Positions 2,699-39,854 of a stretch of 39,854 bases of DNA are shown here, one piece after another. The position numbers and the translations under genes are program-made. How positions within the stretch are numbered: position 1 is the stretch's first letter; each line of letters begins with the position of its first letter. The notes below the pieces were generated by a model. The model had not been told where the DNA came from, ran no database searches, and was given only the letters and a program-made list of their open reading frames with translations. The stretch is from Kayfunavirus LI10P1, in sequence record OZ035803.1, one strand, 5' to 3'.

Positions 2699-2721
2699 AC
2701 TTAACTATCACTATAGGGAAG
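2699..2721 (+). promoter_or_regulatory. Phage RNAP promoter (phiOR-like, downstream of gene 19)
   Basis: acTTAACTATCACTATA-GGGAAG; matches the 11-member family (TAAACTATCACTATAGGGA) with one mismatch at -14; predicted +1 G at 2716. Confidence 0.75.
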
Positions 2722-3298: not shown

Positions 3299-3478
3299 TC
3301 TCACAGTTCAAGAACCTCAAGTCTCCCCATAGGCCCTCTTTCAGTCCAGACAAAGGCCCTACCCCCAGTCTATCATAAGGCTGGACCGATGGTCAAGACG
3401 TTAGGTCAACGATAGGTCTAGGCTATGGCTGGAGGTCAGGACGATAGGTAGGGACTATGGGTCTGCCTCTGAGTCCCT
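3299..3478. repeat. Predicted direct terminal repeat (single copy in this circular assembly); physical left end at about 3299
   Basis: TCTCACAGTTCAAGAACCTCAAGTCTCCCCATAGGCCC at 3299 parallels the T7 left-end sequence TCTCACAGTGTACGGACCTAAAGTTCCCCCATAGGGGG; ..CTCTGAGTCCCT ending at 3478 parallels the end of the T7 repeat (..CTCTGTGTCCCT). Boundaries are by analogy only. Confidence 0.45.
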
Positions 3479-3515
3479 ATCTGTATAGTGATATAGTATA
3501 ACATTACGTCCTACA

Positions 3516-3611
3516 CCTACAGTCTAACTAACCTACAGTCATTGACTCCTGCTGTACCTACAGTCACCGACCATCGGTAAAGCCATTACCTACAGTCAAA
3601 GACCTACAGTC
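3516..3611. repeat. Array of five direct 9-mer repeats CCTACAGTC just inside the left end
   Basis: Exact copies at 3516, 3532, 3557, 3589 and 3603 with irregular 14-32 nt spacing; analogous in position to the ACCTAAAG-type repeats next to the T7 terminal repeat. Confidence 0.6.
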
Positions 3612-3723
3612 TAACGACACAAAGCTATAGACTTAAGGTCTAATACATGTTAGTCAAAGACTATATCCTCTTAGTCACTATGGGGCCGACGATAGCTTAA
3701 TCAATATTATTTAAGATTACCTA

Positions 3724-6209: not shown

Positions 6210-6232
6210 ACTTAACTATCACTATAGGACTC
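6210..6232 (+). promoter_or_regulatory. Phage RNAP promoter immediately upstream of the RNAP gene
   Basis: acTTAACTATCACTATA-GGACTC, one mismatch to the family consensus (same variant as the promoters at 2699 and 29425); +1 G at 6227, 75 nt before ATG 6302. Confidence 0.65.
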
Positions 6233-6301: not shown

Positions 6302-8983
6302 ATGAGCGTCATCTCTATTGACAAACACGACTTCTCTGATGTGTCGAACGCCATTGAGCCGTTTAACCTGCTGGCTGACCACTACGGGCAAGACCTTGCA
6401 GTCAAACAGCTTCAGCTTGAGCATGAGGCATATACAGAAGGCGAGCGACGTTTCATCAAGAACCTTGAGCGGCAGACTGAGCGCGGGGAACTGGCAGACA
6501 ATCAGGTCGCCAAGCCTTTGATGCAGACTCTGGTCCCTAAGATTGCGCAAGCCGTCAGGGAGTGGCACGAAGGCCTAGACGGGAAGCTGTCAACCTCGCG
6601 TCCTAGCGTAGCGTTCACCATGTTGAGCACTGAAGAGAAGGCCGTAAAGGACCGCTCTATGCGCATCTCCTGTGAGTCCGCTGCGGTTATCATACTGAAG
6701 GTCATACTCTCCAAGCTGGTCAAGCCTGAAGGGATACCGATTACACCGATGGCCTCCGCGATAGGTCGCACACTTGAGGACGAAATCCGCTTCGGTCGCA
6801 TCCGTGACAAAGAGAAGGAGCACTTCAAGAAGGCGATAGCTGAGAACCTGAACAAGCGAGCTGGGGCATCCTACAAGAAAGCCTACATGCAAGCGGTCGA
6901 GGCGTCCATGCTGGAGCAAGGCCAACTGGAAGATGCATGGGGGACTTGGAGTCCTACAGAGGCTGTCCACGTTGGCATCAAGATGCTCGAGATTGTCATC
7001 CAGTCAACACAACTGGTCGAGCTTAAGCGGTACGGTGCTGGTAATGCAGCGGCTGACGTAGAGATGGTCCACCTGTCAGACTTCTGGGTCAAGAAGATGG
7101 CACAACGAGGATTCAGCCTTGCGGGTATCGCTCCAGTCTACCAGCCTTGCGTCGTTCCACCTAAGCCGTGGACTGGTGTCGTAGGTGGTGGGTACTGGGC
7201 CAAAGGTCGCAGACCGTTACCATTGATTCGCTTAGGGTCTAAGTCTGCGGTAGCACGTTATGAAGACGTATACATGCCTGAAGTCTATGACGCTGTGAAC
7301 ATCATTCAGAATACACCTTGGAAAGTTAACAAGAAGGTATTGGACGTGGTGAACATGGTCGAGAAGCTGAACAACACGCCTATTAATGACATCCCTCAGA
7401 TGGAACCGCTGAAGCCTGAGGACTATGCTGGTGAAACCGAGGAGGAACTCAAGGCATGGAAGAAGGCTGCTGCTGGTATCTATCGCCGCGAGAAGGCCAG
7501 ACAGTCACGCAGATTGTCCATGAGTTTCATCGTATCACAGGCCAACAAGTTCTCACAGTTTAAGGCCATCTGGTTCCCGTACAACATGGATTGGCGAGGT
7601 CGTGTCTACGCTGTCCCGATGTTCAACCCTCAGGGTAACGACATGCAGAAGGGTCTACTGACTCTGGCGGTCGGAAAGCCTATCGGGGCGGATGGTTTCA
7701 AATGGCTTAAAGTCCACACCGCCAACTGCGCGGGTGTCGATAAGGTAACCTTTGAGGAGCGTATCAAATGGGTGGAAGACAATCACGAGAACATTCTGGC
7801 AGCAGCCAAATCACCGATGGACAGCATCGAGTGGTGGGGGAGTATGGACAGCCCCTTCTGCTTCCTAGCGGCTTGCTTCGAGTATTCTGGGGTGATGAAC
7901 CATGGCTTGACCTACAATTGCTCACTTCCGATTGCCTTCGACGGCTCGTGTTCGGGGATTCAGCACTTCAGCGCGATGCTGAGGGACCACGTAGGCGGAC
8001 ATGCAGTGAACTTAACGCCGTCTGGTCAGGTGCAGGACATCTACCGTATAGTCTCAGACCGTGTGTCAGACCAGTTGAAAGAGCTATTACTGAGCGGTAC
8101 GGACGACGAGCTGGTGACCGTAGAGGACAAGAAGACTGGGGAAATCAGCGAACGCCTGAAGCTTGGGACCAAGAGTCTTGCGCGTCAGTGGCTGACATAC
8201 GGTATGTCACGCAAGGTCACTAAGCGTTCAGTCATGACTCTGGCATACGGGTCGAAAGAGTACGGATTCGCAGACCAAGTTTACGAGGACATCGTGATGC
8301 CAGCGATTGACTCAGGGTCTGGCGCTATGTTCACTGAACCAAGCCAAGCGTCTCGCTTCATGGCAAAGATGATTTGGGAAGCTGTGAGTGTGACAGTAGT
8401 TGCTGCGGTTGACGCGATGAAGTGGCTTCAAGGTGCTGCCAAGCTGCTGGCTGCTGAGGTGAAGGACAAGAAGACTGGAGAAATACTGAAGCCTTGCCTT
8501 CCGGTACACTGGGTCACACCTGATGGGTTCCCGGTCTGGCAGGAATACCGCAAGAAGGATACCACTCGTCTGAACCTGATGTTCTTAGGGTCCTTCAACC
8601 TTCAACCTACGGTCAACAAAGGTACGAAGAAAGAGCTGGACAAGCACAAGCAGGAGTCAGGCATTAGCCCTAACTTCGTCCACTCACAAGATGGTAGCCA
8701 CCTGCGGAAGACTGTAGTCCACACTCACCGCAAGTATGGCGTGATGTCATTCGCAGTGATTCACGATAGCTTCGGGACCATCCCTGCTGACGCTGAGTAT
8801 CTGTTCCGTGGTGTCCGTGAGACGATGGTCGAGACATACCGCGATAACGATGTGCTGCTTGACTTCTACGAGCAGTTTGAATACCAGCTTCATGAAAGCC
8901 AGCGCGACAAGTTGCCTGAGCTTCCGAAGAAAGGTAAACTGAATATCGAAGACATCTTGTCTTCAGACTTTGCATTCGCTTAA
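6302..8983 (+). CDS. 1: T7-type single-subunit DNA-dependent RNA polymerase
   Basis: 893-aa ORF collinear with T7 RNAP over its whole length (FNLLADHYG, RFGRIRDKEKEHFKK, PVYQPCVVPPKPWTG, WFPYNMDWRGRVYAV, LPIAFDGSCSGIQHFSAMLRD, TLAYGSKEYGF, HSQDGSHLRK, IHDSFGT, C-terminal FAFA). Confidence 0.97.
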   Translation: MSVISIDKHDFSDVSNAIEPFNLLADHYGQDLAVKQLQLEHEAYTEGERRFIKNLERQTERGELADNQVAKPLMQTLVPKIAQAVREWHEGLDGKLSTSRPSVAFTMLSTEEKAVKDRSMRISCESAAVIILKVILSKLVKPEGIPITPMASAIGRTLEDEIRFGRIRDKEKEHFKKAIAENLNKRAGASYKKAYMQAVEASMLEQGQLEDAWGTWSPTEAVHVGIKMLEIVIQSTQLVELKRYGAGNAAADVEMVHLSDFWVKKMAQRGFSLAGIAPVYQPCVVPPKPWTGVVGGGYWAKGRRPLPLIRLGSKSAVARYEDVYMPEVYDAVNIIQNTPWKVNKKVLDVVNMVEKLNNTPINDIPQMEPLKPEDYAGETEEELKAWKKAAAGIYRREKARQSRRLSMSFIVSQANKFSQFKAIWFPYNMDWRGRVYAVPMFNPQGNDMQKGLLTLAVGKPIGADGFKWLKVHTANCAGVDKVTFEERIKWVEDNHENILAAAKSPMDSIEWWGSMDSPFCFLAACFEYSGVMNHGLTYNCSLPIAFDGSCSGIQHFSAMLRDHVGGHAVNLTPSGQVQDIYRIVSDRVSDQLKELLLSGTDDELVTVEDKKTGEISERLKLGTKSLARQWLTYGMSRKVTKRSVMTLAYGSKEYGFADQVYEDIVMPAIDSGSGAMFTEPSQASRFMAKMIWEAVSVTVVAAVDAMKWLQGAAKLLAAEVKDKKTGEILKPCLPVHWVTPDGFPVWQEYRKKDTTRLNLMFLGSFNLQPTVNKGTKKELDKHKQESGISPNFVHSQDGSHLRKTVVHTHRKYGVMSFAVIHDSFGTIPADAEYLFRGVRETMVETYRDNDVLLDFYEQFEYQLHESQRDKLPELPKKGKLNIEDILSSDFAFA

Positions 8984-9529: not shown

Positions 9530-9552
9530 CCTAAACTATCACTATAGGATTA
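9530..9552 (+). promoter_or_regulatory. Phage RNAP promoter (phi1.1-like)
   Basis: cCTAAACTATCACTATA-GGATTA; consensus match; +1 G at 9547. Confidence 0.75.
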
Positions 9553-11215: not shown

Positions 11216-11238
11216 CCTAAGCTATCACTATAGGACAA
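11216..11238 (+). promoter_or_regulatory. Phage RNAP promoter (variant, -12 G)
   Basis: cCTAAGCTATCACTATA-GGACAA; one mismatch; +1 G at 11233. Confidence 0.65.
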
Positions 11239-12145: not shown

Positions 12146-12300
12146 CTGAGGTTGAGAAGAAATACATCGTGGAGCTTGAGGGTCGCGTCCAGTCCTTCGA
12201 GGTTCCTGTGTACGCAAAGTCTCTTGAAGAGGCTACCATGAAGTCCCAAGAGTATGAGGACGCTGGGTTTGTGGTCGGACGGATTCGTCCTGAGACCTAA
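12142..12300 (+). CDS. 2: gp2-like inhibitor of host RNA polymerase
   Basis: 52-aa ORF, RBS GGAGCGAGG; ..[24 protein letters not shown] parallels T7 gp2 (..SFEVPIYAETLDEA..AGFEVTRVRP); below the track cut-off. Confidence 0.7.
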
Positions 12301-12318
12301 ACTATCACTGTAGGACAG
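12296..12318 (+). promoter_or_regulatory. Phage RNAP promoter (phi2.5-like; variant -3 G)
   Basis: cCTAAACTATCACTGTA-GGACAG; +1 G at 12313. Confidence 0.6.
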
Positions 12319-14451: not shown

Positions 14452-14667
14452 ATGATTAAACTTATCGAATTTCTTGGTCGTCTGGTGGTGCGTGGTTATC
14501 GTCGTGCTGCGGTTATGGAACGAAAGGTAGAAAAGAAGACTGCTGACAGTGCGGCTGATGCAGCTGCTCTGGCTGACAAGCTGACCATCGCGTCACTGGA
14601 AGCTGGCATGAAGGCACGTCAAGCTGACACCAAAGCTGACCAGTTGGCTCAGTTCTTCAAAGCCTAA
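14452..14667 (+). CDS. Hypothetical small protein (71 aa)
   Basis: RBS AAGGAGAA upstream; Ala/Lys-rich, probably helical; occupies the position of T7 gene 3.8 but lacks HNH motifs. Confidence 0.55.
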   Translation: MIKLIEFLGRLVVRGYRRAAVMERKVEKKTADSAADAAALADKLTIASLEAGMKARQADTKADQLAQFFKA

Positions 14668-14685
14668 ACTATCACCTTAGGGATG
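14663..14685 (+). promoter_or_regulatory. Weak or variant phage RNAP promoter upstream of gene 4
   Basis: CCTAAACTATCACCTTA-GGGATG: upstream half is consensus, but two mismatches in the -4/-3 melting region. Confidence 0.4.
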
Positions 14686-16715: not shown

Positions 16716-18887
16716 ATGTTTGACCTTAAGAGTATCTGGGGTTCTGACATAGAGACCAACGGTCTCCTTGATACAGTCTCCCAGTTTCACTGTGGGGTTC
16801 TGATTAACGCCGAGTCGAATGAGACCCTTAAGTATGGGGTAGCTCCGATGGTAGGTATCGTCGGTGGCTTCAAAGAGTATGTACAGAAGGTGGAAGAGAT
16901 TGCCGCATCACCTGATGGTATGCTGGTATTCCACAACGGTATCAACTATGACGTCCCGGCTATTGACAAGCTAAAGCGTCTGTACTTTGGGAAACGCTTT
17001 AACTTCCCGAAACACAAGATGATTGATACCTTGGTGCTGGGACGCTTGATGTATCCAAACATTAAGTTCTCAGACATGGGCGCAGTGAAAGCTGGTCGTC
17101 TGCCACCTAAGATGATGGGACGCCAGTCTCTTGAGGCTTGGGGCTATCGTCTCGGTGAGATGAAAGGTGAGTACAAACACGATTACGTTGCCAAGTGCAA
17201 GGCTGAAGGTATCGAATATAAGGCTGGGGACGAATGGTTGTTCCCATCTCAGGAGATGCTAGACTATAACGTTCAAGACGTTGTGGTCACACTGGCGTTG
17301 TTCAAGAAGTTCCTGACTGACAAGTATTACTTCCAGTCTGAACAGTTCGCTTTCGACCAGATTTATGCGTTGCGTCTGGAACATGATGCTGCGTGGACCT
17401 GTGCGAAGATGGAACGTAACGGCTATCCGATGAACACCGAGATGGTCGAAGGCTTATATCGTGAACTCACCGTCAAACGTGCAGAGTTGTTGGACAAGCT
17501 GCGTTCGACTTTCGGTAGCTGGTATGCACCAAAGGGAGGCAAGGAGTTCTTCAAGCACCCACGGACAGGCAAGGACCTTCCGAAGTATCCGCGAGTCGTG
17601 TATCCTAAGGTCGGGTCAGTATTCAAGAAGCCGAAGAACAAAGCTCAACGATTAGGTCTGGAGCCTTGCGAGTTCGACTCACGAGACACGATGGAAGGAG
17701 CACCGTTCACACCTATCACTTACGTTGAGTTTAATCCGGGAAGCGGAGACCACTTAGCGAAAGTCCTGATGGAGCGTGGCTGGGAGCCTGTAGACTTCAC
17801 TGACACCGGGAAACCTGTAGTCGATGACGAGACGTTAGAACACGTTAAGTTACCAGACGCAGAGGCTCAGGCTTGCGTAGAGCTGGTCCGTGAGTATCTG
17901 GTAGTCCAGAAGCGCATCGGTCAGGCGGCTGAAGGTAAGAACGCATGGTTGAAACTTGTAGGTCCAGACGGACGTATGCACGGTGCAATCAACCCATGTG
18001 GTGCAGTAACCGGACGTGCGACCCATAGTACACCAAACATGGCTCAGGTCCCGGCTAACGGTGCACCATACGGTGAGACTTGCCGTGGTGCTTTCGGTGC
18101 AGCTTGGAACAAGAAGGACGGTGAACCAGACCCTTGGATTCAAGTGGGCGTGGATGCCTCAGGTCTTGAGCTTCGTTGTCTGGGGAACCGAGCGGCCCCG
18201 TTTGATGGTGGAGCCTATGCGAAGACTGTGGTAGAAGGGGACATCCACTGGGCCAACGCAGTAAACGCTGGGTTAGCACCTAACGTCCCACGCGATAAGT
18301 CGAACCACGACCATGAGGCTTTCCGTAACAACGCTAAGACGTTCATCTATGCGTTCCTGTATGGTGCAGGGGCCGCTAAGATTGGACTGATAGTCGGTGG
18401 CGGTAAGAAGGAAGGTTCAGCTCTCATGAAGAAATTCATTGAGGGTACACCAGCTATCAAGGATCTGCGAGAGGCTGTGAGTAATACGTTAATCTCAGAC
18501 TCTAAGTGGGTGGATGGAGAGAACATCGTCAAGTGGAAACGCCGTTGGTTGCGTGGACTTGATGGTCGCCGTATCCACATCCGGTCGCCGCACTCAGCAC
18601 TTAACGCCTTACTTCAGGGTGATGGTGCGGTGGTCTGTAAAACGTGGTTCACTTGGCTTGAGAGGAACCTAGAAGCTAAAGGCTACGTGCATGGCTGGGA
18701 TGGTGACTTTGCGATTATGGCTTTTGTCCATGATGAAGTTCAAGTTGCCGCAAGGACTATGGAAATAGCTGAGGACATCGTTAAGGTGGCGCAATCCACA
18801 ATGCGAGAGGTTGGAGAGTTCTACAAGTTCAAGTGTGTACTTGACACCGAGGGAAAGATAGGGGATACGTGGCGAGAATGTCACTAA
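16716..18887 (+). CDS. 5: DNA polymerase (family A, T7 gp5-like)
   Basis: ATG 16716 with GGAGGA 7 nt upstream (the track ORF begins at GTG 16680); exonuclease motif DIETNGL, LEAWGYRLGEMKGEY, DYNVQDVVVT, SWYAPKGG, PKYPRVVYPKVG, RATHSTPNMAQVP, DASGLELRC, NAKTFIYAFLYGAG, HDEVQV collinear with T7 DNA polymerase. Confidence 0.97.
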   Translation: MFDLKSIWGSDIETNGLLDTVSQFHCGVLINAESNETLKYGVAPMVGIVGGFKEYVQKVEEIAASPDGMLVFHNGINYDVPAIDKLKRLYFGKRFNFPKHKMIDTLVLGRLMYPNIKFSDMGAVKAGRLPPKMMGRQSLEAWGYRLGEMKGEYKHDYVAKCKAEGIEYKAGDEWLFPSQEMLDYNVQDVVVTLALFKKFLTDKYYFQSEQFAFDQIYALRLEHDAAWTCAKMERNGYPMNTEMVEGLYRELTVKRAELLDKLRSTFGSWYAPKGGKEFFKHPRTGKDLPKYPRVVYPKVGSVFKKPKNKAQRLGLEPCEFDSRDTMEGAPFTPITYVEFNPGSGDHLAKVLMERGWEPVDFTDTGKPVVDDETLEHVKLPDAEAQACVELVREYLVVQKRIGQAAEGKNAWLKLVGPDGRMHGAINPCGAVTGRATHSTPNMAQVPANGAPYGETCRGAFGAAWNKKDGEPDPWIQVGVDASGLELRCLGNRAAPFDGGAYAKTVVEGDIHWANAVNAGLAPNVPRDKSNHDHEAFRNNAKTFIYAFLYGAGAAKIGLIVGGGKKEGSALMKKFIEGTPAIKDLREAVSNTLISDSKWVDGENIVKWKRRWLRGLDGRRIHIRSPHSALNALLQGDGAVVCKTWFTWLERNLEAKGYVHGWDGDFAIMAFVHDEVQVAARTMEIAEDIVKVAQSTMREVGEFYKFKCVLDTEGKIGDTWRECH

Positions 18888-20923: not shown

Positions 20924-20946
20924 ACTAAACTATCACTATAGGGACT
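20924..20946 (+). promoter_or_regulatory. Phage RNAP promoter (phi6.5-like)
   Basis: aCTAAACTATCACTATA-GGGACT; +1 G at 20941; 65 nt upstream of the ATG at 21008. Confidence 0.75.
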
Positions 20947-21007
20947 TTAGGACCTAAGATATGACTATAAGATAGACTTTAGTCTTAACTTAAAGAGGAG
21001 ATTCAAG

Positions 21008-22198: not shown

Positions 22199-23767
22199 AT
22201 GGCTGAACGTGAAGGGTTCGCTGCTGAAGGCGCTAAGTCAGTTTATGATAGATTGAAGAACGGACGACAGCCTTACGAGACCCGCGCACAGAACTGTGCT
22301 GCTGTCACTATCCCGTCACTGTTTCCTAAGGAATCAGACAACTCGTCTACTGAATATACCACTCCGTGGCAAGCTGTAGGTGCTCGCTGCTTGAACAACT
22401 TGGCTGCAAAGCTGATGTTGGCGTTATTCCCTCAGTCACCGTGGATGCGACTGACAGTCTCCGAATATGAGGCAAAGACCTTGAGTCAGGACTCAGAGGC
22501 CGCTGCTCGTGTTGACGAAGGGCTGGCTATGGTCGAGCGGGTGTTGATGGCCTACATGGAGACTAACAGTTTCCGTGTCCCATTGTTCGAAGCTCTGAAG
22601 CAGCTTATAGTCTCCGGTAACTGTCTGCTCTACATTCCAGAGCCTGAACAGGGAACCTACAGTCCTATGCGAATGTACCGCTTAGTGTCATACGTTGTTC
22701 AACGTGATGCGTTCGGTAACATCTTGCAGATTGTGACTCTCGACAAGGTAGCGTTTAGTGCTCTACCGGAGGACGTGAAGTCTCAACTCAACGCAGATGA
22801 CTATGAGCCTGACACCGAGCTGGAAGTGTATACGCACATCTACCGTCAGGACGACGAGTATCTACGCTACGAGGAAGTGGAAGGCATTGAGGTAGCAGGG
22901 ACCGATGGTTCTTACCCACTGACTGCCTGTCCATACATCCCGGTACGAATGGTTCGACTGGATGGTGAAGACTACGGTCGTTCTTACTGCGAGGAGTATC
23001 TGGGAGACCTCAACTCGCTGGAGACGATTACAGAAGCTATCACCAAAATGGCTAAGGTAGCCTCCAAGGTGGTGGGCCTCGTTAACCCGAACGGTATCAC
23101 ACAACCTCGTCGTCTGAACAAGGCGGCTACAGGTGAGTTCGTGGCTGGTCGCGTTGAGGACATCAACTTCCTGCAACTGACGAAAGGTCAGGACTTTACG
23201 ATTGCTAAATCGGTAGCTGACGCTATCGAGCAACGTTTAGGCTGGGCCTTCCTTCTTAATAGTGCCGTTCAGCGTAATGCCGAGCGAGTCACTGCTGAAG
23301 AGATTCGTTATGTTGCTGGCGAACTGGAGGCGACCTTAGGTGGCGTGTACTCAGTACAGTCACAAGAGCTTCAGTTACCTATCGTCCGTGTGCTGATGAA
23401 CCAGCTTCAGTCTGCTGGCATGATTCCTGACCTTCCGAAAGAAGCAGTAGAGCCTACTGTCTCCACAGGTCTTGAAGCGTTAGGTCGTGGTCAGGACTTG
23501 GAGAAGCTGACTCAGGCGGTTAACATGATGACTGGTCTTCAGCCACTATCTCAGGACCCGGACATCAACTTGCCGACCCTTAAGCTACGACTCCTGAACG
23601 CTCTGGGTATCGACACCGCTGGCCTACTCCTGACGCAAGACGAGAAGATTCAGCGCATGGCTGAGCAGTCGTCTCAACAGGCAGTTGTCCAAGGTGCTGG
23701 CGCTGCTGGTGCTAACATGGGCGCTGCTGTAGGTCAGGGAGCTGGTGAGGACATGGCTCAAGCCTAA
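22199..23767 (+). CDS. 8: Head-to-tail connector / portal protein (T7 gp8-like)
   Basis: 522 aa; GAKSVYDRLKNGRQPYETRAQNCA, TIPSLFPKESDNSSTEYTTPWQAVGARCLNNLAAKLMLALFP, YRLVSYVVQRDAFGNILQ, RMVRLDGEDYGRSYCEEYLGDL, VTAEEIRYVAGELE collinear with the T7 portal. Confidence 0.96.
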   Translation: MAEREGFAAEGAKSVYDRLKNGRQPYETRAQNCAAVTIPSLFPKESDNSSTEYTTPWQAVGARCLNNLAAKLMLALFPQSPWMRLTVSEYEAKTLSQDSEAAARVDEGLAMVERVLMAYMETNSFRVPLFEALKQLIVSGNCLLYIPEPEQGTYSPMRMYRLVSYVVQRDAFGNILQIVTLDKVAFSALPEDVKSQLNADDYEPDTELEVYTHIYRQDDEYLRYEEVEGIEVAGTDGSYPLTACPYIPVRMVRLDGEDYGRSYCEEYLGDLNSLETITEAITKMAKVASKVVGLVNPNGITQPRRLNKAATGEFVAGRVEDINFLQLTKGQDFTIAKSVADAIEQRLGWAFLLNSAVQRNAERVTAEEIRYVAGELEATLGGVYSVQSQELQLPIVRVLMNQLQSAGMIPDLPKEAVEPTVSTGLEALGRGQDLEKLTQAVNMMTGLQPLSQDPDINLPTLKLRLLNALGIDTAGLLLTQDEKIQRMAEQSSQQAVVQGAGAAGANMGAAVGQGAGEDMAQA

Positions 23768-23785
23768 ACTATCACTATAGGAACA
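23763..23785 (+). promoter_or_regulatory. Phage RNAP promoter (phi9-like)
   Basis: cCTAAACTATCACTATA-GGAACA; +1 G at 23780. Confidence 0.75.
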
Positions 23786-24749: not shown

Positions 24750-24772
24750 GACTAAACTATCACTATAGGGAG
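24750..24772 (+). promoter_or_regulatory. Phage RNAP promoter (phi10-like; best consensus match, upstream of the capsid gene)
   Basis: aCTAAACTATCACTATA-GGGAGA; +1 G at 24767; the GGGAGA initiation region is identical to the T7 class III consensus. Confidence 0.85.
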
Positions 24773-29424: not shown

Positions 29425-29447
29425 CCTTAACTATCACTATAGGGACT
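29425..29447 (+). promoter_or_regulatory. Phage RNAP promoter (phi13-like) embedded in a 12-bp inverted repeat
   Basis: cCTTAACTATCACTATA-GGGACT; +1 G at 29442; flanked by aatggcctatag (29407-29418) and ctataggccatt (29446-29457), which are exact reverse complements. Confidence 0.75.
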
Positions 29448-35800: not shown

Positions 35801-36705
35801 GTAAGCGTCGGTTCGATGACCGCTGGCTTAAGACCGCTGGTATCTCCGACGAGCAGTGGAAGGGCATTAAGTCCCTAATCAGTGAGTCAGTGACTCGAGG
35901 TCCAGACGGGAAGTATACCATCAAGGATAAGAAGGCGTTCAGTCAGGACCCAAGGGCTATGGACCTGTGGCGTATGGGTGACACCATCGCTGATGAGACC
36001 CTGCTCCGCCCCCACAAGCTGAGCAACATGGACGCCAAGGCTTATGGTCCGATAGCGAAGACTGTCTTGCAGTTTAAGAACTTCGTTATCAAGTCTATCA
36101 ACGGTCGAACCATGCGTACCTTCTACAATGCCACCAAGAACAACCGAGCTATGGACGCTGCGCTGTCAACGGTTATGTCTATGGGTCTGGCTGGAATGTA
36201 CTACATGGCTCAGGCGCACATAAAGGCTTACGCTATGCAGGACGGTCGTGACCGAGAGTATCTGAAGCAAGCCCTTAACCCAACAATGATTGGCTATGCG
36301 GCGCTGTCCCGTAGCTCCCACTTAGGTGGTCCTCTTGGGGTCGCCAACATTCTGGGTGGAATCGCTGGGTATGAGGACACTAAGATGCTCCGCTCGTCAA
36401 TCCTTCCGCGCTCACCTACCGAGAAGACGGAGAAGCCAATCGCCTTTGGTGCTGCTTCCAGTGGTCCGGTAATGAATGTGGTCGGCAACTTCCTTGAGCA
36501 GGTCCCGGCTTTCGGCTATGCTGCTAACGTTGGTGCTACGGCTTACAACTTGGCGGGATACCTCAAGGCTGATACCCGTGTCAACGAGCGAGACTACATG
36601 ACCGGGATGTATAACACGTTCCGTGAACTTGTACCGAATGACCCGATTACCCAGAAGTTGCTGCTTGGAACGTTTGAGGAGCAGGGCATCCACATCAAGG
36701 ACTAA
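32818..36705 (+). CDS. 16: Internal core protein D (T7 gp16-like) with a divergent N-terminal domain
   Basis: ATG 32818 with AAGGAG 7 nt upstream (the track ORF starts at TTG 32800); from about residue 200 collinear with T7 gp16 (TRWNNHKW, AGVIGAGVDPLTYVP, VAGGDA, RLEARETARN, VRSPTGMQSGASGK, GTYVPHVY, KAYGISH, NNSFLEARNLFDSDMSI, RRVNGDIAIM, ILTGRARR, TNYLLDA, AMDLWR, ALSRSS, ANVGAT, LVPNDPITQ); the first 130 aa (IRNNNPGNIR..) differ from the T7 transglycosylase region. Confidence 0.93.
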   Translation: MATRGIRNNNPGNIRVSKDQWEGMTGDDGAFVTFDSPESGVRALGKNLLSYGRQGYDSIEKIINRWAPPNENDTKAYIDSVVAATGIPATQSLDLSNPDTLSALAQAISFHETGSRYNPEVYQKGVERALNGISPKTPPVSANVFDALTEGLKAKPKVALGENLPTAAGLNIEGQAPEAPNESFGEMFYKSTGDTMQEREDRSTWFGFGTATEAEVKNSMVGVAIRAGKTEDSLDVIGDVFNPTRWNNHKWSREELDQIRNAGVLPQYYGVITGGSTQNLTELINLALENQKLDQEKAKAGIGAQLAAGVIGAGVDPLTYVPIAGQVGKGGKLVNKMFTVAAQSGALSGVSEMARTSVAGGDAHVAEAILGGALFGGGMTAIADGLGRALGRNTNEFAGPATRLEARETARNVDGQDLSRLPIQEGEQTFSHQGVKFADVPNEPGSVRLEDGSILIGENPLNPKTRQVFDEVIEPERAAAGVNLGGLTEIGLKLLRSENPEIRGVAADLVRSPTGMQSGASGKIGTTASDVFERLRAVDHRFYNDIDDAVTEALKDPYFQTAFWRDSGAFRQDIYQRVSMAIEDGSGNLKAELTPGELKVYDLLKNQFDAKREMMENPAMFGRPDAQSIFPGSRFKGTYVPHVYSNQMKELYIKELGSPEALQEAIKKSWLTSYASRPEVKKRVDEALLEADPTLTPEGLAAAVDKYANDKAYGISHTEQFERSSVMEENINGLVGLENNSFLEARNLFDSDMSIVLPNGQTFSVNNLREWDMDKIVPAYNRRVNGDIAIMAGTGKTTKDMKDLVETMMNKAGDDGKLKGEVSTLRDTLKILTGRARRDGADDAAFATVMRTMTDLSFFAKNAYMGVQNLTEIGGMLARGNVRALLHGVPMFRDLAFRNKKVGALEIKDLHNVLFGKELDDSIRPSKQDVIDRLRSYSDLGRGAATALGTAKYYTGELAVRSPFTKVLNGTTNYLLDAGRQGFLSDIVEHSLTGSKRRFDDRWLKTAGISDEQWKGIKSLISESVTRGPDGKYTIKDKKAFSQDPRAMDLWRMGDTIADETLLRPHKLSNMDAKAYGPIAKTVLQFKNFVIKSINGRTMRTFYNATKNNRAMDAALSTVMSMGLAGMYYMAQAHIKAYAMQDGRDREYLKQALNPTMIGYAALSRSSHLGGPLGVANILGGIAGYEDTKMLRSSILPRSPTEKTEKPIAFGAASSGPVMNVVGNFLEQVPAFGYAANVGATAYNLAGYLKADTRVNERDYMTGMYNTFRELVPNDPITQKLLLGTFEEQGIHIKD

Positions 36706-36723
36706 ACTATCACTATAGGAAAC
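36701..36723 (+). promoter_or_regulatory. Phage RNAP promoter (phi17-like)
   Basis: aCTAAACTATCACTATA-GGAAAC; +1 G at 36718; 52 nt upstream of the tail-fibre ATG. Confidence 0.75.
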
Positions 36724-36769: not shown

Positions 36770-39625
36770 ATGTCCACGATTACACAATTCCCTTCAGGAA
36801 ACACTCAGTACAGGATAGAGTTCGACTACCTAGCCAGAACGTTTGTTGTTGTTACGCTGGTGAATAGCTCTAACCCTACCCTGAACCGTGTACTGGAAGT
36901 TGGTCGAGATTACCGATTCCTTAATCCAACGATGATTGAGATGTTGGCTGACCAATCAGGTTTCGACATCGTTCGTATTCACCGTCAGACTGGAACTGAC
37001 TTAGTGGTAGACTTCAGGAATGGCTCAGTGTTGACAGCTAGTGACCTGACCAATTCAGAGCTTCAGGCTATCCATATTGCAGAAGAAGGTCGAGACCAAA
37101 CGGTTGACTTAGCGAAGGAATATGCCGATGCTGCTGGTAGCTCTGCTGGCAACGCTAAGGATAGCGAGGACGAAGCACGACGAATCGCTGATAGTATCAA
37201 GGCATCTGGTCTAATTGGCTATATTACCCGTCGCTCCTTCGAGAAAGGCTTCAACGTTACAACATGGAACGAGGTCCTGCTATGGGAAGAGGATGGTGGG
37301 TATTACCGCTGGGATGGTGGACTGCCAAAAACAGTACCTGTTGGTTCAACTCCTGAAACGTCTGGCGGCGTTGGTTTGGGTGCGTGGGTTAGTGTTGGTG
37401 ATGCGTCATTGCGTGCCGATATTGCAAAACCAACCGGAACAAATTTAATCGGCGCAAAAAACGGGGAAACACTGTCTACAGTCCTGGGTAGCCGTTGGGC
37501 TAATTCGGGCGCAGATAAAAAAGAAATTCGTTTTGACCTGCCATTACTATTCCCAGATTACGATGCTATTCTGGCGGCACACTCTGACTGGACGTTTATT
37601 TATCCAGGGTCATTCTGTATCGGGGATGATGGCAATATCTACATTGCATATGGCCCAAGTAACAACGCAGCGACGGAACGTTTCGTTGTAGTTTACTCAG
37701 GTGAAGGTGAATACTTAGGGTATCTCCAGACTAATAATGGAGGCACCGGGGTAAATGGTTCTGCGGTATCCGAGGGGATTATCGTAACCAATTACTATGG
37801 TTCACTTAAGTTATTCCTGGGATCCTACGATGGTAACTTAGCTGAGTTTGATATCTCAGCAGTGACCTACGGCACCACGATTAGCTATACAGCGTTACAC
37901 CAAGTAGGTCTGTATAACCAGTTCTCCTTCCACAATGGAATGTGGGCAGTTGAACAGGCCATCCCATCATTGGGTATTAACCGACAACGTAATGTTATTG
38001 CATACTTCAACTCCGCATTTGCATTAACTGGTTTCACGGAATTTTCTCCGTATGATGCTGGATACATCACGTCAACTACTACTGATTACGGGTCACTTCA
38101 AACTAAGCGACAAGCAATCTGTTTAGCTCCCGGTGTTTTGATCATGGCATTTGGTGGTGTTTACATTACAGGAACAACTGTAGAAGCGCCTACTAATTAT
38201 CAGGGGGTAAAAGCATTTAGCACTGATGGGCACAAAATGGTAGAGGCAGTAATACCCCCTACTGATTTTATTAGTGTTTTGGATGCTAAAGGGTTAATGA
38301 CCTCTCGTATAGAGAATGAGGGTGTTTGCTATTCAAATGGTGAAGTATTTACTTTATGGATTTATAACAATAGAACTGCCTCAAATGCGTATACTAACGG
38401 TATCCTGATTACTAAAGAATATTCGAACTCCCCGGATTTGGATTTTTCTGGGGCGGTTACGGTATCCCCCGGTTACGATACTGTTCGAATGGCTTCTGGG
38501 GTTTACCCTCGTATTCTCGCGGGTGACAAACTCTATAATCCGTTGACTGGTGCTGCCATGACTTCAATGTCAGAAGTATTGGACTTTATGCGCCTGTCTG
38601 GGCAGAAGGAAGTTACTATCTATACGTCAAGCACCGGTCTTACAGATCTGGATGGAGTTGCCTACCCAATTGGGATAGAGCTTCATATCAGCAACCTGAA
38701 TAACCTGAGCTTCTCTATAGATCAGACTGGGCCAATTACCCGTAAGACTGTGCGCGTTACTTATGACACTTCCGGTTATACCGTAATTACTGGGGCTATC
38801 GGTTTAGAGACTTATCGCTTAACCCTGAATAATACTGACTCTGGTGCATTAACCCAAGGTCGAATTGCAGCTAGGGCTTTCGGTAATAAAACTTTAACCG
38901 AATCAGAACAGATTCTTGTCCTCGATCAACAAAGTTCCGCATCTGCACATTCTCTTATCTTAGGTGGTGGATCGTCGGTATTTAAGAGTGCTACGACTAT
39001 TAGTTTTGCTACTAATCCGTCGCCCGCAGCCGTAGGCGGCACTATTCGATGGCGTTTAGATGATACATCTTTACGTCCATACACAGATAACGCTTACAAT
39101 TTAGGCGACCCAGCATTACGTGTGGCTCAAGTCTTCGCAGCGATTGGTACTATTAATACGTCCGACTCCCGTGAAAAAACTTACCCGTTTGAAATATCGG
39201 ATGATATCCTTGATGCCTGGGGCGACGTGCAGATAATCACGTACAAGTGGTTATCTTCTATTGCGGCTAAAGGTGAAGATTCTGCTCGTTGGCATTTCGG
39301 GGTAATTGCCCAGCAAGTTCGTGATGCCTTCGTAAAGCATGGTTTGGATGGTACTACCTTCGGTCTGCTTTGCTATGACGAGTGGGAAGATGAGTATGAA
39401 CCTGAGTTCGTTGATGAGGTTATCACTGTTAATATTGATGGTGTAGATACCGAAGTTACCCGTCAAGTGGAAACCGGTAATACCATACTTACTAGAGCTG
39501 CCGGTAATCGCTGGGGCATTCGTCCAGATCAGTGTTTCTGGTTGGAGGCCGCTTATCAGCGACGTCGCTGCGACAGGATTGAAACACGACTGGATAAACT
39601 TGAAGGTTGTGGAGGTAGAGGCTAA
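36770..39625 (+). CDS. 17: Tail fibre / tailspike (T7 gp17-like N-terminal adaptor fused to a foreign receptor-binding module with a C-terminal chaperone-like domain)
   Basis: 951 aa; residues 1-150 align with the T7 gp17 tail-attachment domain (EFDYLARTFVVVTL, DYRF, DLVVDFRNGSVLTASDL, QAIHIAEEGRD); residues about 150-951 are unrelated to the T7 fibre shaft, AT-richer with different codon usage, and end with an SDSREK..WHFGVIAQQV..C-terminal region resembling S74-type autoproteolytic chaperone domains. Confidence 0.9.
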   Translation: MSTITQFPSGNTQYRIEFDYLARTFVVVTLVNSSNPTLNRVLEVGRDYRFLNPTMIEMLADQSGFDIVRIHRQTGTDLVVDFRNGSVLTASDLTNSELQAIHIAEEGRDQTVDLAKEYADAAGSSAGNAKDSEDEARRIADSIKASGLIGYITRRSFEKGFNVTTWNEVLLWEEDGGYYRWDGGLPKTVPVGSTPETSGGVGLGAWVSVGDASLRADIAKPTGTNLIGAKNGETLSTVLGSRWANSGADKKEIRFDLPLLFPDYDAILAAHSDWTFIYPGSFCIGDDGNIYIAYGPSNNAATERFVVVYSGEGEYLGYLQTNNGGTGVNGSAVSEGIIVTNYYGSLKLFLGSYDGNLAEFDISAVTYGTTISYTALHQVGLYNQFSFHNGMWAVEQAIPSLGINRQRNVIAYFNSAFALTGFTEFSPYDAGYITSTTTDYGSLQTKRQAICLAPGVLIMAFGGVYITGTTVEAPTNYQGVKAFSTDGHKMVEAVIPPTDFISVLDAKGLMTSRIENEGVCYSNGEVFTLWIYNNRTASNAYTNGILITKEYSNSPDLDFSGAVTVSPGYDTVRMASGVYPRILAGDKLYNPLTGAAMTSMSEVLDFMRLSGQKEVTIYTSSTGLTDLDGVAYPIGIELHISNLNNLSFSIDQTGPITRKTVRVTYDTSGYTVITGAIGLETYRLTLNNTDSGALTQGRIAARAFGNKTLTESEQILVLDQQSSASAHSLILGGGSSVFKSATTISFATNPSPAAVGGTIRWRLDDTSLRPYTDNAYNLGDPALRVAQVFAAIGTINTSDSREKTYPFEISDDILDAWGDVQIITYKWLSSIAAKGEDSARWHFGVIAQQVRDAFVKHGLDGTTFGLLCYDEWEDEYEPEFVDEVITVNIDGVDTEVTRQVETGNTILTRAAGNRWGIRPDQCFWLEAAYQRRRCDRIETRLDKLEGCGGRG

Positions 39626-39692: not shown

Positions 39693-39854
39693 ATGATTGA
39701 GTTAGACTTCAAGAATGAGGTCCTTAAAGCCTCTCCTATCGTCGGGACCGCTGCGGCTGATGGTGCCAGTCGGTTCTTCTTCGGACTTACACTGAACGAA
39801 TGGTTCTACGTTGCAGCTATCGCGTACACCGTTGTCCAGATTGGTGTGCTAGTC
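39693..39854 (+). CDS. 17.5: Holin (T7 gp17.5-like), 5' portion; ORF runs off the window end and resumes at 1..33
   Basis: RBS GGAGG 6 nt upstream; MIELDFKNEVLKASPIVGTAAADGASRFFFGLTLNEWFYVAAIAYTVVQIG.. is near-identical to T7 gp17.5 (MLSLDFNNELIKAAPIVGTGVADVSARLFFGLSLNEWFYVAAIAYTVVQIG) as recalled. Confidence 0.85.
   Translation, partial: MIELDFKNEVLKASPIVGTAAADGASRFFFGLTLNEWFYVAAIAYTVVQIGVLV

Follow-up and report, generated by a model that had tools for sequence, protein, structure and literature searches.

The promoters and RNA polymerase specificity loop of Kayfunavirus LI10P1 as a co-varied pair of the K1F class

Introduction

The DNA analysed here is the 39,854-nucleotide record OZ035803.1 of Kayfunavirus LI10P1 (hereafter the window). 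In an initial annotation, made from the sequence alone, it was suggested that the phage promoters and the recognition loop of the phage RNA polymerase (RNAP) had diverged together from those of T7 into a distinct, possibly orthogonal pair. This raises the question of what kind of pair it is, which residues and bases distinguish it, and whether it is new. The phage is K1F-like (genus Kayfunavirus, Studiervirinae), and the window holds its genome in circularly permuted form. Over 25 kb, it shares 94-96% identity with Kayfunavirus genomes.

Results and Discussion

The promoter set

Eleven promoter sites were found in the whole window, all on the + strand and just 5′ of genes (Table 1), with the consensus (A/C)CT(A/T)AACTATCACTATAGG. 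A search with TAAACTATCACTATAGGGA, permitting up to three mismatches, returned 11 matches, on the + strand only, against a chance expectation of 0.01, and shuffled sequences never yielded more than one match under the same setting. A weight-matrix scan of the window again recovered all 11, with scores of 30-37 bits. It added one degenerate site at 20953, which scored 15 bits, and detected zero promoter sites on the − strand. All the +1 positions were outside ATG-started + strand ORFs of at least 40 aa, and the next gene began 20-110 nt downstream of +1. The sites occupied the same places as T7 phi1.6, 2.5, 6.5, 9, 10, 13, 17 and OR.

Fourteen positions were invariant in all eleven promoters: −16 C, −15 T, −13 A, −11 C, −10 T, −9 A and −8 T, and also −7 C, −6 A, −5 C, −2 T, −1 A, +1 G and +2 G. 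The −12 to −8 segment was ACTAT in ten promoters and GCTAT in one (position −12 was A in 10/11), and −11 to −5 did not vary. ACTAT in this place, followed by the CACTATAGG core, identifies the K1F class. Among the remaining positions, −17 was A in five and C in six promoters, −14 was A in eight and T in three, and +3 was G in five and A in six. The eleven sites and their common motif had been recognised in the initial annotation. However, the GGGA start that it assigned to all of them fits only 5/11, and the rest start with GGA, since +3 is G in five promoters only. Its reading of −12 to −8 as ACTAT, against CGACT in T7 and ACCCT in T3, was confirmed, with the T7 and T3 segments checked against the promoter annotation of V01146 and AJ318471.

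In one Kayfunavirus paper repeats of this kind were merely inferred to be promoters (PMC13298934), and they could be imagined as another dispersed signal, acting in recombination, packaging or RNA processing. We reject this identity as extremely improbable. The repeats are identical to the T7 promoter core from −8 to +2, they keep strictly to the + strand, 5′ of genes and at the places of T7 promoters, and a 93%-identical enzyme initiates in vitro at the same sequence, with +1 mapped by sequencing (PMC12272871). In a second Kayfunavirus class, described below, they also vary together with the polymerase loop. We thus treat all eleven as promoters.

Table 1. Positions in the window of the promoters, the polymerase gene and its recognition elements.
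Feature	Positions	Strand	Sequence	+1	K1F counterpart	Basis or remark
Promoter, phiOR equivalent	2699..2720	+	ACTTAACTATCACTATAGGGAA	2716	38852	
Promoter	6210..6231	+	ACTTAACTATCACTATAGGACT	6227	2474	75 nt 5′ of RNAP start codon; counterparts also at Ro45lw 2400 and Ro103C3lw 2470
Gene 1, T7-type single-subunit RNA polymerase, 893 aa	6302..8983	+				ORF, Pfam, phmmer
Equivalent of N-terminal AT-rich recognition loop, aa 93-103	6578..6610	+	DGKLSTSRPSV			Alignment
Specificity loop, aa 749-780 (T7 739-770)	8546..8641	+	YRKKDTTRLNLMFLGSFNLQPTVNKGTKKELD			Alignment
Span of base-contact codons	8567..8605	+				Computed coordinates
R756 codon (T7 R746)	8567-8569	+				
N758 codon (T7 N748)	8573-8575	+				
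N766 codon (T7 R756)	8597-8599	+				
Q768 codon (T7 Q758)	8603-8605	+				
Interval of the initial annotation: second strand and distal part of loop, S764-Q784	8590..8653	+				Translation
Promoter	9530..9551	+	CCTAAACTATCACTATAGGATT	9547	5552	
Promoter, phi1.6 equivalent	11216..11237	+	CCTAAGCTATCACTATAGGACA	11233	7183	Annotated as phi1.6 in Ro45lw
Promoter, phi2.5 equivalent	12296..12317	+	CCTAAACTATCACTGTAGGACA	12313	8499	Annotated as phi2.5 in Ro45lw
Promoter 5′ of primase/helicase	14663..14684	+	CCTAAACTATCACCTTAGGGAT	14680	10866	Weakest match of the eleven
Promoter, phi6.5 equivalent	20924..20945	+	ACTAAACTATCACTATAGGGAC	20941	17177	
Promoter, phi9 equivalent	23763..23784	+	CCTAAACTATCACTATAGGAAC	23780	19998	
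Promoter, phi10 equivalent (capsid)	24751..24772	+	ACTAAACTATCACTATAGGGAG	24768	20997	
Promoter, phi13 equivalent	29425..29446	+	CCTTAACTATCACTATAGGGAC	29442	25321	
Promoter, phi17 equivalent (tail spike)	36701..36722	+	ACTAAACTATCACTATAGGAAA	36718	32597	

The polymerase and its recognition loops

The gene 1 product matched the Pfam families RNA_pol (PF00940; 1.6e-106, 357 bits, cut-off 22) and RPOL_N (PF14700; 57.4 bits, cut-off 30.1). In a phmmer search that retrieved the T7 RNAP structures 1CEZ/1QLN, its residues 1-893 aligned with residues 1-883 of 1CEZ (E=0). It was 96% identical to K1F gp1, 93% to the Ro45lw enzyme, 64% to T7, 63% to T3, 59% to K11 and 32% to SP6. The catalytic aspartates are kept (D547 and D822, T7 D537 and D812), in invariant columns of a six-polymerase alignment.

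At the place of T7 FRLQPTINTNKDSEIDAHKQ the window RNAP reads FNLQPTVNKGTKKELDKHKQ. Both loop sequences held up on checking: that of the window was correct by translation, and the T7 loop as given in the initial annotation was an exact match to the real T7 sequence. The interval proposed as the base-reading segment requires adjustment. It starts at 8590, one base 5′ of the codon boundary, and the translation of 8591-8653 is SFNLQPTVNKGTKKELDKHKQ (window residues 764-784, T7 754-774). The base-contacting residues of T7 RNAP are R746, N748, R756 and Q758 (PMC11880802), and two of these four lie upstream of the interval. The loop does differ from T7 at several positions, as had been claimed, but among the four base-contact positions only R756 is replaced, by Asn. 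Within Q744-I761, the segment that has been grafted experimentally, the window and K1F enzymes differ from T7 at four positions (Q744T, Q754S, R756N and I761V). Most of the differences listed in the annotation form a cluster at T7 762-771, which the specificity-switching graft did not include.

That distal cluster, and not the first strand and R756N, might be thought to set most of the difference in specificity from T7. It is the most divergent stretch (T7 NTNKDSEIDA, window NKGTKKELDK, 8/10 positions differing), and it lies inside the 739-770 loop and inside the “Region3” K740-E768 (PMC11880802). However, the graft that moved K1F specificity into T7 RNAP comprised Q744-I761 only, with its four differences, and published couplings are strongest at 748, 756 and 758. 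Moreover, the motif NKG.(K/S)KELDK is nearly unchanged in both Kayfunavirus classes, yet their promoters differ. A main role of the distal loop is therefore highly unlikely, and we favour the first strand and R756N as the source of the difference.

The N-terminal AT-rich recognition loop is also remodelled. DGKLSTSRPSV in the window has a 2-aa insertion relative to T7 93-101 KAKRGKRPT and lacks the basic (K/R)RGK motif. According to Cheetham et al. in 1999, T7 residues 93-101 reportedly read −17 to −13 in the minor groove. The −16/−15 region is normally an A/T-only minor-groove element.

Comparison with T7, T3 and K11

The window RNAP belongs to the same enzyme family and fold as those of T7 and T3, and the promoters share one layout, with a binding region from −17 to −5 and an initiation region from −4 to +6. 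From −8 to +2 the sequence is identical to T7. The binding part departs from it at −12 to −9 (ACTA in the window, CGAC in T7) and at −17 to −14. T3 has ACCCT in place of ACTAT at −12 to −8 and is different at −17 to −14 too. On the protein side, R746, N748 and Q758 of T7 are retained and R756N is changed. Unlike T7 and T3, the window phage has the remodelled AT-rich loop, and it carries a promoter directly 5′ of gene 1.

The native window promoter differs from the T7 consensus at 8/19 positions. A scan of the window with the T7 −17 to +2 consensus detected no site within four mismatches, and the T3 consensus matched only two sites, each at four mismatches. T7-class or T3-class specificity was rejected, since consensus promoters were lacking and the residue at T7 position 756 is Asn, not Arg. 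Additional promoters of T7, T3, K11 or SP6 type were not found on scanning the window.

K11 also has Asn at 756, but it has C at −9. Since N748 is kept although −11/−10 changes from GA to CT, and since K11 combines Asn756 with C at −9, the code is not a simple one of one residue to one base. A PDB search returned T7 and mitochondrial enzymes only and no K1F-class RNAP-promoter complex. Residue-to-base contacts, including any assignment of an atom to a base, would thus be extrapolations from T7.

The sequences and their co-variation are direct observations of this analysis. For the mechanism, we propose that the gene 1 RNAP would transcribe the middle and late genes from eleven promoters of 21-23 bp with the form (A/C)CT(A/T)AACTATCAC TATA GG(G/A), with the first G as the start point. 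The melting and initiation part (−7 to +2) would serve as in T7, with which it is shared. The β-hairpin specificity loop would set the specificity for −12 to −8, in an enzyme with the combination N/N/Q at 748/756/758, in which T7 R746, N748 and Q758 are kept and R756 has become Asn. A second contribution may come from the AT-rich loop which, with its insertion and the loss of KRGKR, would face a promoter with an invariant −16 C.

Identity with the K1F pair

The promoter-polymerase pair of the window is very probably the published K1F pair. The K1F RNAP (DQ111067) is identical to the window enzyme over residues 626-893, including the whole specificity loop (aa 749-785 unchanged, N/N/Q at T7 positions 748/756/758), and all 36 substitutions between the two enzymes precede residue 626. 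K1F has eleven promoters, 11/11 of them syntenic with those of the window. Ten match their counterparts exactly across the 19-nt motif, and the eleventh, the phiOR site, has a difference at +3. Both phages also have the degenerate twelfth site. Compared with K1F, the genome of the window is circularly permuted, and its tail spike has another central domain. The differences between the two touch no promoter-recognition element, save P92L beside the AT-rich loop. The loop occurs in about 204 phage records, with an identity of at least 95% across the 92-aa loop region. The K1F genome paper is said to be that of Scholl and Merril from 2005, to which the original description of the K1F promoter reportedly goes back, and models of T7-like promoters are said to be found in Chen and Schneider, also from 2005.

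The initial annotation correctly re-derived a real specificity pair from raw sequence. Its proposal of a distinct, co-varied and possibly orthogonal pair is supported. The pair is that of the K1F class, for which experimental tests exist in the literature, and it is not new, being already published. The K1F pair being known, little is added here to existing knowledge: promoter and loop of K1F belong to the standard toolbox of synthetic biology, serving as an orthogonal alternative to T7, and the rule of co-variation between 748/756/758 and −12 to −8 has been published. In the coupling analysis concerned, these residues were set against these bases and a K1F node was named (PMC11880802).

In the main text of Temme et al. 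(2012), from which we took the loop and promoter ranges, grafting the K1F loop (equivalent of T7 Q744-I761) into T7 RNAP and swapping promoter positions −12 to −7 gave an active, orthogonal pair, T7(K1F)/PK1F, which was reported there as orthogonal to T7, T3 and N4-type pairs (PMC3458549). According to that text, exactly the loop segment of the window, TTRLNLMFLGSFNLQPTV, together with ACTATC at −12 to −7, was sufficient for the switch in specificity (PMC3458549). T7(K1F) is a chimera, with a T7 backbone acting on a T7 promoter backbone, and it consequently lacks the native AT-rich loop and the native −17 to −13 (A/C)CT(A/T)A. The pair was re-used as the K1FR sigma fragment by Segall-Shapiro et al. 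(2014); its activity was below that of T7, and an M750R rescue was needed in the split version (PMC4299498).

Closer to the window enzyme is that of Ro45lw, a different isolate of the same genus. Its RNAP is 93% identical, with two loop differences only (M760L and T775S), neither of them base-contacting. The purified enzyme used the minimal promoter ACTTAACTATCACTATAGGGA, identical to the window promoter at 2699, and started at the +1 G (Takatsuki et al. 2025, PMC12272871). Its yield, behaviour with temperature, salt tolerance and the homogeneity of its transcript ends were described as well (PMC12272871). By analogy with Ro45lw on the same promoter, the window enzyme is predicted to initiate at the G after TATA. 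Activity and orthogonality, demonstrated in the literature for K1F and Ro45lw, would likewise carry over to the window pair. Discrimination against T7 and T3 promoters is predicted from the T7(K1F) chimera, with the reservations expressed in the literature.

These reservations bear on whether a pair with its own distinct sequence might still fall short of true orthogonality, so that it and the T7/T3 systems would cross-read in both directions to a biologically relevant degree. The orthogonality of grafted pairs has been called limited or partial, with relatively high non-cognate activity for grafted T3, K1F and N4 pairs (PMC11880802). T7 RNAP in the PURE system also gave a promoter-dependent background on non-T7 promoters (PMC12272871), and the shared −8 to +2 sequence would favour such cross-reading. 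However, each grafted RNAP was highly orthogonal according to the main text of Temme et al. (PMC3458549). The native K1F RNAP/PK1F system was orthogonal to the MmP1 and VP4 systems, with a 46,470-fold on-target effect against 6-27-fold off-target effects, a comparison that involves MmP1 and VP4 only (PMC12218169). The eight differences from the T7 consensus, and the lack of any site in the window within four mismatches of it, also argue against cross-reading. We consider it unlikely and retain the reading of an orthogonal pair.

A second specificity class in Kayfunavirus

About 13 records, among them Cronobacter phage GW1, Escherichia phage Ro103C3lw and Enterobacter phage EcpYZU01, formed a second class. 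It was first revealed by 02_vB_Eclo_IJM, a frameshift-ridden record in which the RNAP is split in five CDS, and was confirmed with Ro103C3lw and EcpYZU01. All three carry D748/R756/Q758, the combination of T3. The loop residues of the second class are D748/T754/R756, against N/S/N in the window. Its promoters are syntenic with those of the window (for comparison, ATTAAACCCTCACTATAGG) and most have ACCCT at −12 to −8, with a few single-base variants such as ACACT and TCCCT. The site-specific sequence from −7 to +5 is kept, for example CACTGTAGGACA at phi2.5. The RNAPs of Ro103C3lw and the window share 87% identity. Over the last 430 residues, the enzymes of class A (the K1F class) show only five fixed differences from that of Ro103C3lw, which include exactly T7 positions 748 and 756. 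The two Kayfunavirus classes are thus a clean within-genus test of loop-promoter co-variation.

The classes also differ at the other end of the binding region. The second class has T or A at −16, where the window has C, and its AT-rich loop, TRGKPQ, resembles that of T7 and lacks the 2-aa insertion. In the window class, the remodelled loop co-varies with the promoter, where −16 is an invariant C:G and −15 is T. It is possible, though we put this forward only tentatively, that two modules and not one set the K1F class apart from T7, T3 and the second Kayfunavirus class. The co-variation that suggests a role for the AT-rich loop and −16 C is between two classes only. In the coupling analysis, no mention of the AT-rich loop was found in the main text (PMC11880802). 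If the loop is a true second determinant, native K1F-class pairs would be tighter in orthogonality than current loop grafts, and the two classes would record a concerted switch of some 11 promoters and two protein loops within one genus.

A modest practical value may lie in the design of tighter orthogonal polymerase-promoter pairs. Two features are relevant to such design: the co-varying AT-rich loop and −16, which are absent from loop-graft designs, and the contrast within Kayfunavirus between N/N/Q with ACTAT and D/R/Q with ACCCT on an 87%-identical backbone.

Promoters and polymerase of the window

The initial annotation had described eleven promoters with a shared sequence and a phage RNA polymerase (RNAP) with a divergent recognition loop. 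This observation was confirmed with two small corrections, to the start coordinate of the loop and to the variable promoter position +3. The motif TAAACTATCACTATAGGGA, searched with up to three mismatches, gave 11 matches in the window, on the + strand only, against 0.01 (maximum one) in shuffled sequence. A weight matrix built from these sites recovered the same eleven at 30-37 bits and no promoter site on the - strand. Each +1 was located outside ATG-started + strand ORFs of at least 40 aa, with a gene start shortly downstream. Invariant in all 11 promoters were C at -16, T at -15, A at -13, CTATCAC from -11 to -5, T at -2, A at -1 and G at +1 and +2. Position -17 was A or C, -14 was A in eight sites and T in three, and -12 was A in 10 of 11. 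The consensus first proposed was therefore borne out except for its GGGA start, which is not the majority form because G occupied +3 in only 5 of the 11. The values it had been compared with at -12 to -8, CGACT in T7 and ACCCT in T3, agreed with the annotated promoters of both phage records.

The interval noted for the loop (8590-8653) lies inside the RNAP ORF but begins one base too early; 8591-8653 translates as SFNLQPTVNKGTKKELDKHKQ. The window RNAP matched Pfam RNA_pol (PF00940, 1.6e-106) and RPOL_N (PF14700). A PDB sequence search found the T7 RNAP of 1CEZ/1QLN collinear with it end to end (E=0) and returned no K1F-class structure. In a six-way alignment it was 96% identical to gp1 of coliphage K1F, 64% to T7, 63% to T3, 59% to K11 and 32% to SP6. 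The alignment also showed a loop differing from that of T7, whose segment, given in the initial annotation as FRLQPTINTNKDSEIDAHKQ, proved exact when checked against the T7 sequence.

Relation to K1F

K1F gp1 and the window RNAP differed at 36 positions, all before residue 626, and shared every residue of the loop region (aa 749-785). In K1F (DQ111067, the type species) there were eleven syntenic promoters, ten of them identical to those of the window across the 19-nt motif, while the phiOR site differed at +3; a degenerate twelfth site was also common to both. The window pair is the published K1F pair, and for that reason nothing in the pair is new. The K1F promoters were reportedly first described together with the K1F genome by Scholl and Merril in 2005.

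The interpretation of promoter and polymerase as a co-varied pair is supported. A K1F subfamily was defined by Temme et al. (2012), who mined the loops of phage RNAPs and predicted promoters with PHIRE; their T7(K1F) loop graft with a -12 to -7 promoter swap showed 17-fold induction and, according to the authors, was orthogonal to T7, T3 and N4-type pairs (PMC3458549). The graft was used again as the K1FR sigma fragment by Segall-Shapiro et al. (2014; PMC4299498). Native K1F RNAP/PK1F expression was functional in Halomonas, Pseudomonas and E. coli and orthogonal to MmP1 and VP4, with a 46,470-fold on-target effect and off-target effects of 6-27-fold (PMC12218169). Our literature search found no figure for native-enzyme cross-reactivity with T7/T3 promoters. 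A 2025 coupling study has an explicit K1F node and describes earlier grafts as only partly orthogonal (PMC11880802). For Kayfunavirus Ro45lw, whose RNAP shares 93% identity with that of the window, Takatsuki et al. (2025) purified the enzyme, mapped +1 to G and defined a minimal promoter, ACTTAACTATCACTATAGGGA, identical to window 2699-2719 (PMC12272871). A 2026 genome report on another Kayfunavirus gives the promoter consensus CTWAACTATCACTATAGG (PMC13298934).

The RNAP region was 99% identical to that of Escherichia phage PSK1, with hundreds of Kayfunavirus records at 90-95%, and a 25-kb stretch of the window shared 94-96% identity with Kayfunavirus genomes. Class size was estimated by tblastn with the 92-aa loop region as query, which retrieved 124 phage records at 99% or more, 80 at 95-99%, 14 at 90-95% and 3 at 80-90%; the T7, T3 and K11 groups appeared at 60-80%. 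By this sampling, the K1F-type loop class is large, discrete and well sampled. Among the 36 RNAP differences from K1F, 14 clustered in aa 588-625 (nt 8063-8176) and 10 more in aa 496-539, which suggests mosaic exchange within the gene and not uniform divergence.

Specificity residues and a second class

The T7 promoter is read by hydrogen bonds from R746, N748, R756 and Q758, and among T7-like phages residue 746 is coupled to -7, 748 to -11/-10, 756 to -10/-9 and 757/758 to -8 (PMC11880802). T7 numbers are obtained here by subtracting 10 from those of the window. The window RNAP retained R746, N748 and Q758, and R756 was replaced by Asn. The loop is divergent, as annotated, but of the four contact residues two precede the interval chosen, and the cluster that had been emphasised (T7 762-771), though divergent, holds none of the base contacts. 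Transfer of Q744-I761 into T7 RNAP conferred K1F specificity (PMC3458549); within this segment K1F and T7 differ only by Q744T, Q754S, R756N and I761V. N748 was retained despite the changed -11/-10, and K11 likewise has Asn at 756 with another base at -9.

Among records 90-95% identical in the loop, Enterobacter phage 02_vB_Eclo_IJM had the loop TTRLDLMFLGTFRLQPTV, with D748 and R756, the T3 combination, and promoters with ACCCT at -12 to -8. Since this assembly is full of frameshifts, the pattern was checked and confirmed in Escherichia phage Ro103C3lw and Enterobacter phage EcpYZU01. This second class within the genus Kayfunavirus (class B; K1F-type phages being class A) comprised about 13 records, Cronobacter phage GW1 among them, with D748/T754/R756 in the loop as against window 8567-8605. 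Most class B promoters carried the T3-like ACCCT, and their positions in the genome matched those of class A. They were syntenic, with site-specific downstream sequences preserved in both, and the concerted differences were TA versus CC at -10/-9 and C versus T/A at -16.

The Ro103C3lw and window RNAPs were 87% identical, and at only 58 positions did Ro103C3lw depart from a residue shared by all four class A enzymes. Just five of these, S671N, N758D, S764T, N766R and K776S, fell within the C-terminal 430 residues, and so included exactly T7 positions 748 and 756. D/R/Q pairs with ACCCT on T3 and Kayfunavirus backbones alike. The loop and all of the roughly 11 promoters seem to have changed together while the polymerase backbone stayed 87% identical. 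This contrast is direct sequence evidence for co-variation, and a cleaner one than that with T7.

Features of the window and compared sequences
Feature	Position	Strand	Description
Promoter upstream of RNAP gene	6210-6231 (+1 at 6227)		Full-strength; 75 nt before RNAP ATG at 6302
T7-type RNA polymerase ORF	6302-8983	+	2,682 nt, 893 aa; domain, structure and alignment matches
Remodelled AT-rich loop region	6572-6658		RNAP aa 91-119; strongly changed in K1F class
Degenerate promoter-like site	20953-20974		CCTAAGATATGACTATAAGATA; 15 bits by weight matrix, against 30-37 for real ones
Window loop	aa 749-785		YRKKDTTRLNLMFLGSFNLQPTVNKGTKKELDKHKQE
T7 loop	aa 739-775		YKKPIQTRLNLMFLGQFRLQPTINTNKDSEIDAHKQE
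AT-rich loop equivalent, class A			DGK(L/S)STSRPSV; 2-aa insertion
AT-rich loop equivalent, class B			GS--TRGKPQV
AT-rich loop, T7 and T3			T7 KA--KRGKRPT; T3 AS--KKGRKPS
Promoter upstream of gene 1			Window ACTTA-ACTAT-CACTATAGGACT; Ro103C3lw ATTAA-ACCCT-CACTATAGGACT
phi2.5 promoter			Window CCTAA-ACTAT-CACTGTAGGACA; Ro103C3lw AATAA-ACCCT-CACTGTAGGACA

Many other RNAP differences between the classes surrounded the counterpart of the AT-rich recognition loop in the N-terminal domain. In T7 RNAP, residues 93-101 contact the minor groove at -17 to -13. The K1F-class loop region was without the basic RGK motif and had another insertion at about aa 112-119 relative to T7/T3. Promoter position -16 was an invariant C in class A and A/T in class B, T7 and T3. 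The AT-rich loop thus co-varies with -16, and from two classes only we infer that loop and base may form a second specificity module. In Ro45lw the 3'-terminal CT was the only part of ACTTAACTATCACTATAGGGACT dispensable for RNA synthesis, and the minimal promoter retained the 5' ACT (PMC12272871), in keeping with a role for -17 to -15.

Additional sites and genome organisation

The promoter before the RNAP gene was kept in K1F (2474), Ro45lw (2400, A at -2), Enterobacter phage EP1 and class B Ro103C3lw (2470). No phage promoter is annotated directly upstream of gene 1 in the T7, T3 and K11 records. This promoter would mean positive feedback by the RNAP on its own gene. One EP1 promoter, at 39729, had AATAT and not ACTAT at -12 to -8 (TCTAAAATATCACTATAGGATT); AATAT has been described as bridging the nodes of T7 and K1F (PMC11880802). 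The degenerate site, which has the phi6.5-equivalent promoter 29 nt upstream, occurs as an identical copy in K1F at 17206 and may represent a tandem promoter that has decayed.

Compared with the records of K1F and Ro45lw, the window is a circular permutation, with the RNAP gene at 6302 instead of about 2500 and K1F phiOR (38852) at 2699. On this basis the physical ends of the genome and its terminal repeat are expected near 3400-3700. The tail-spike gene of the window (36770-39625) was 90% identical to the K1F gp17 endosialidase over the N-terminal 226 aa and 41% over the C-terminal ~180 aa (chaperone-like part), whereas the central ~540 aa were unrelated, which suggests a receptor specificity other than that of K1F.
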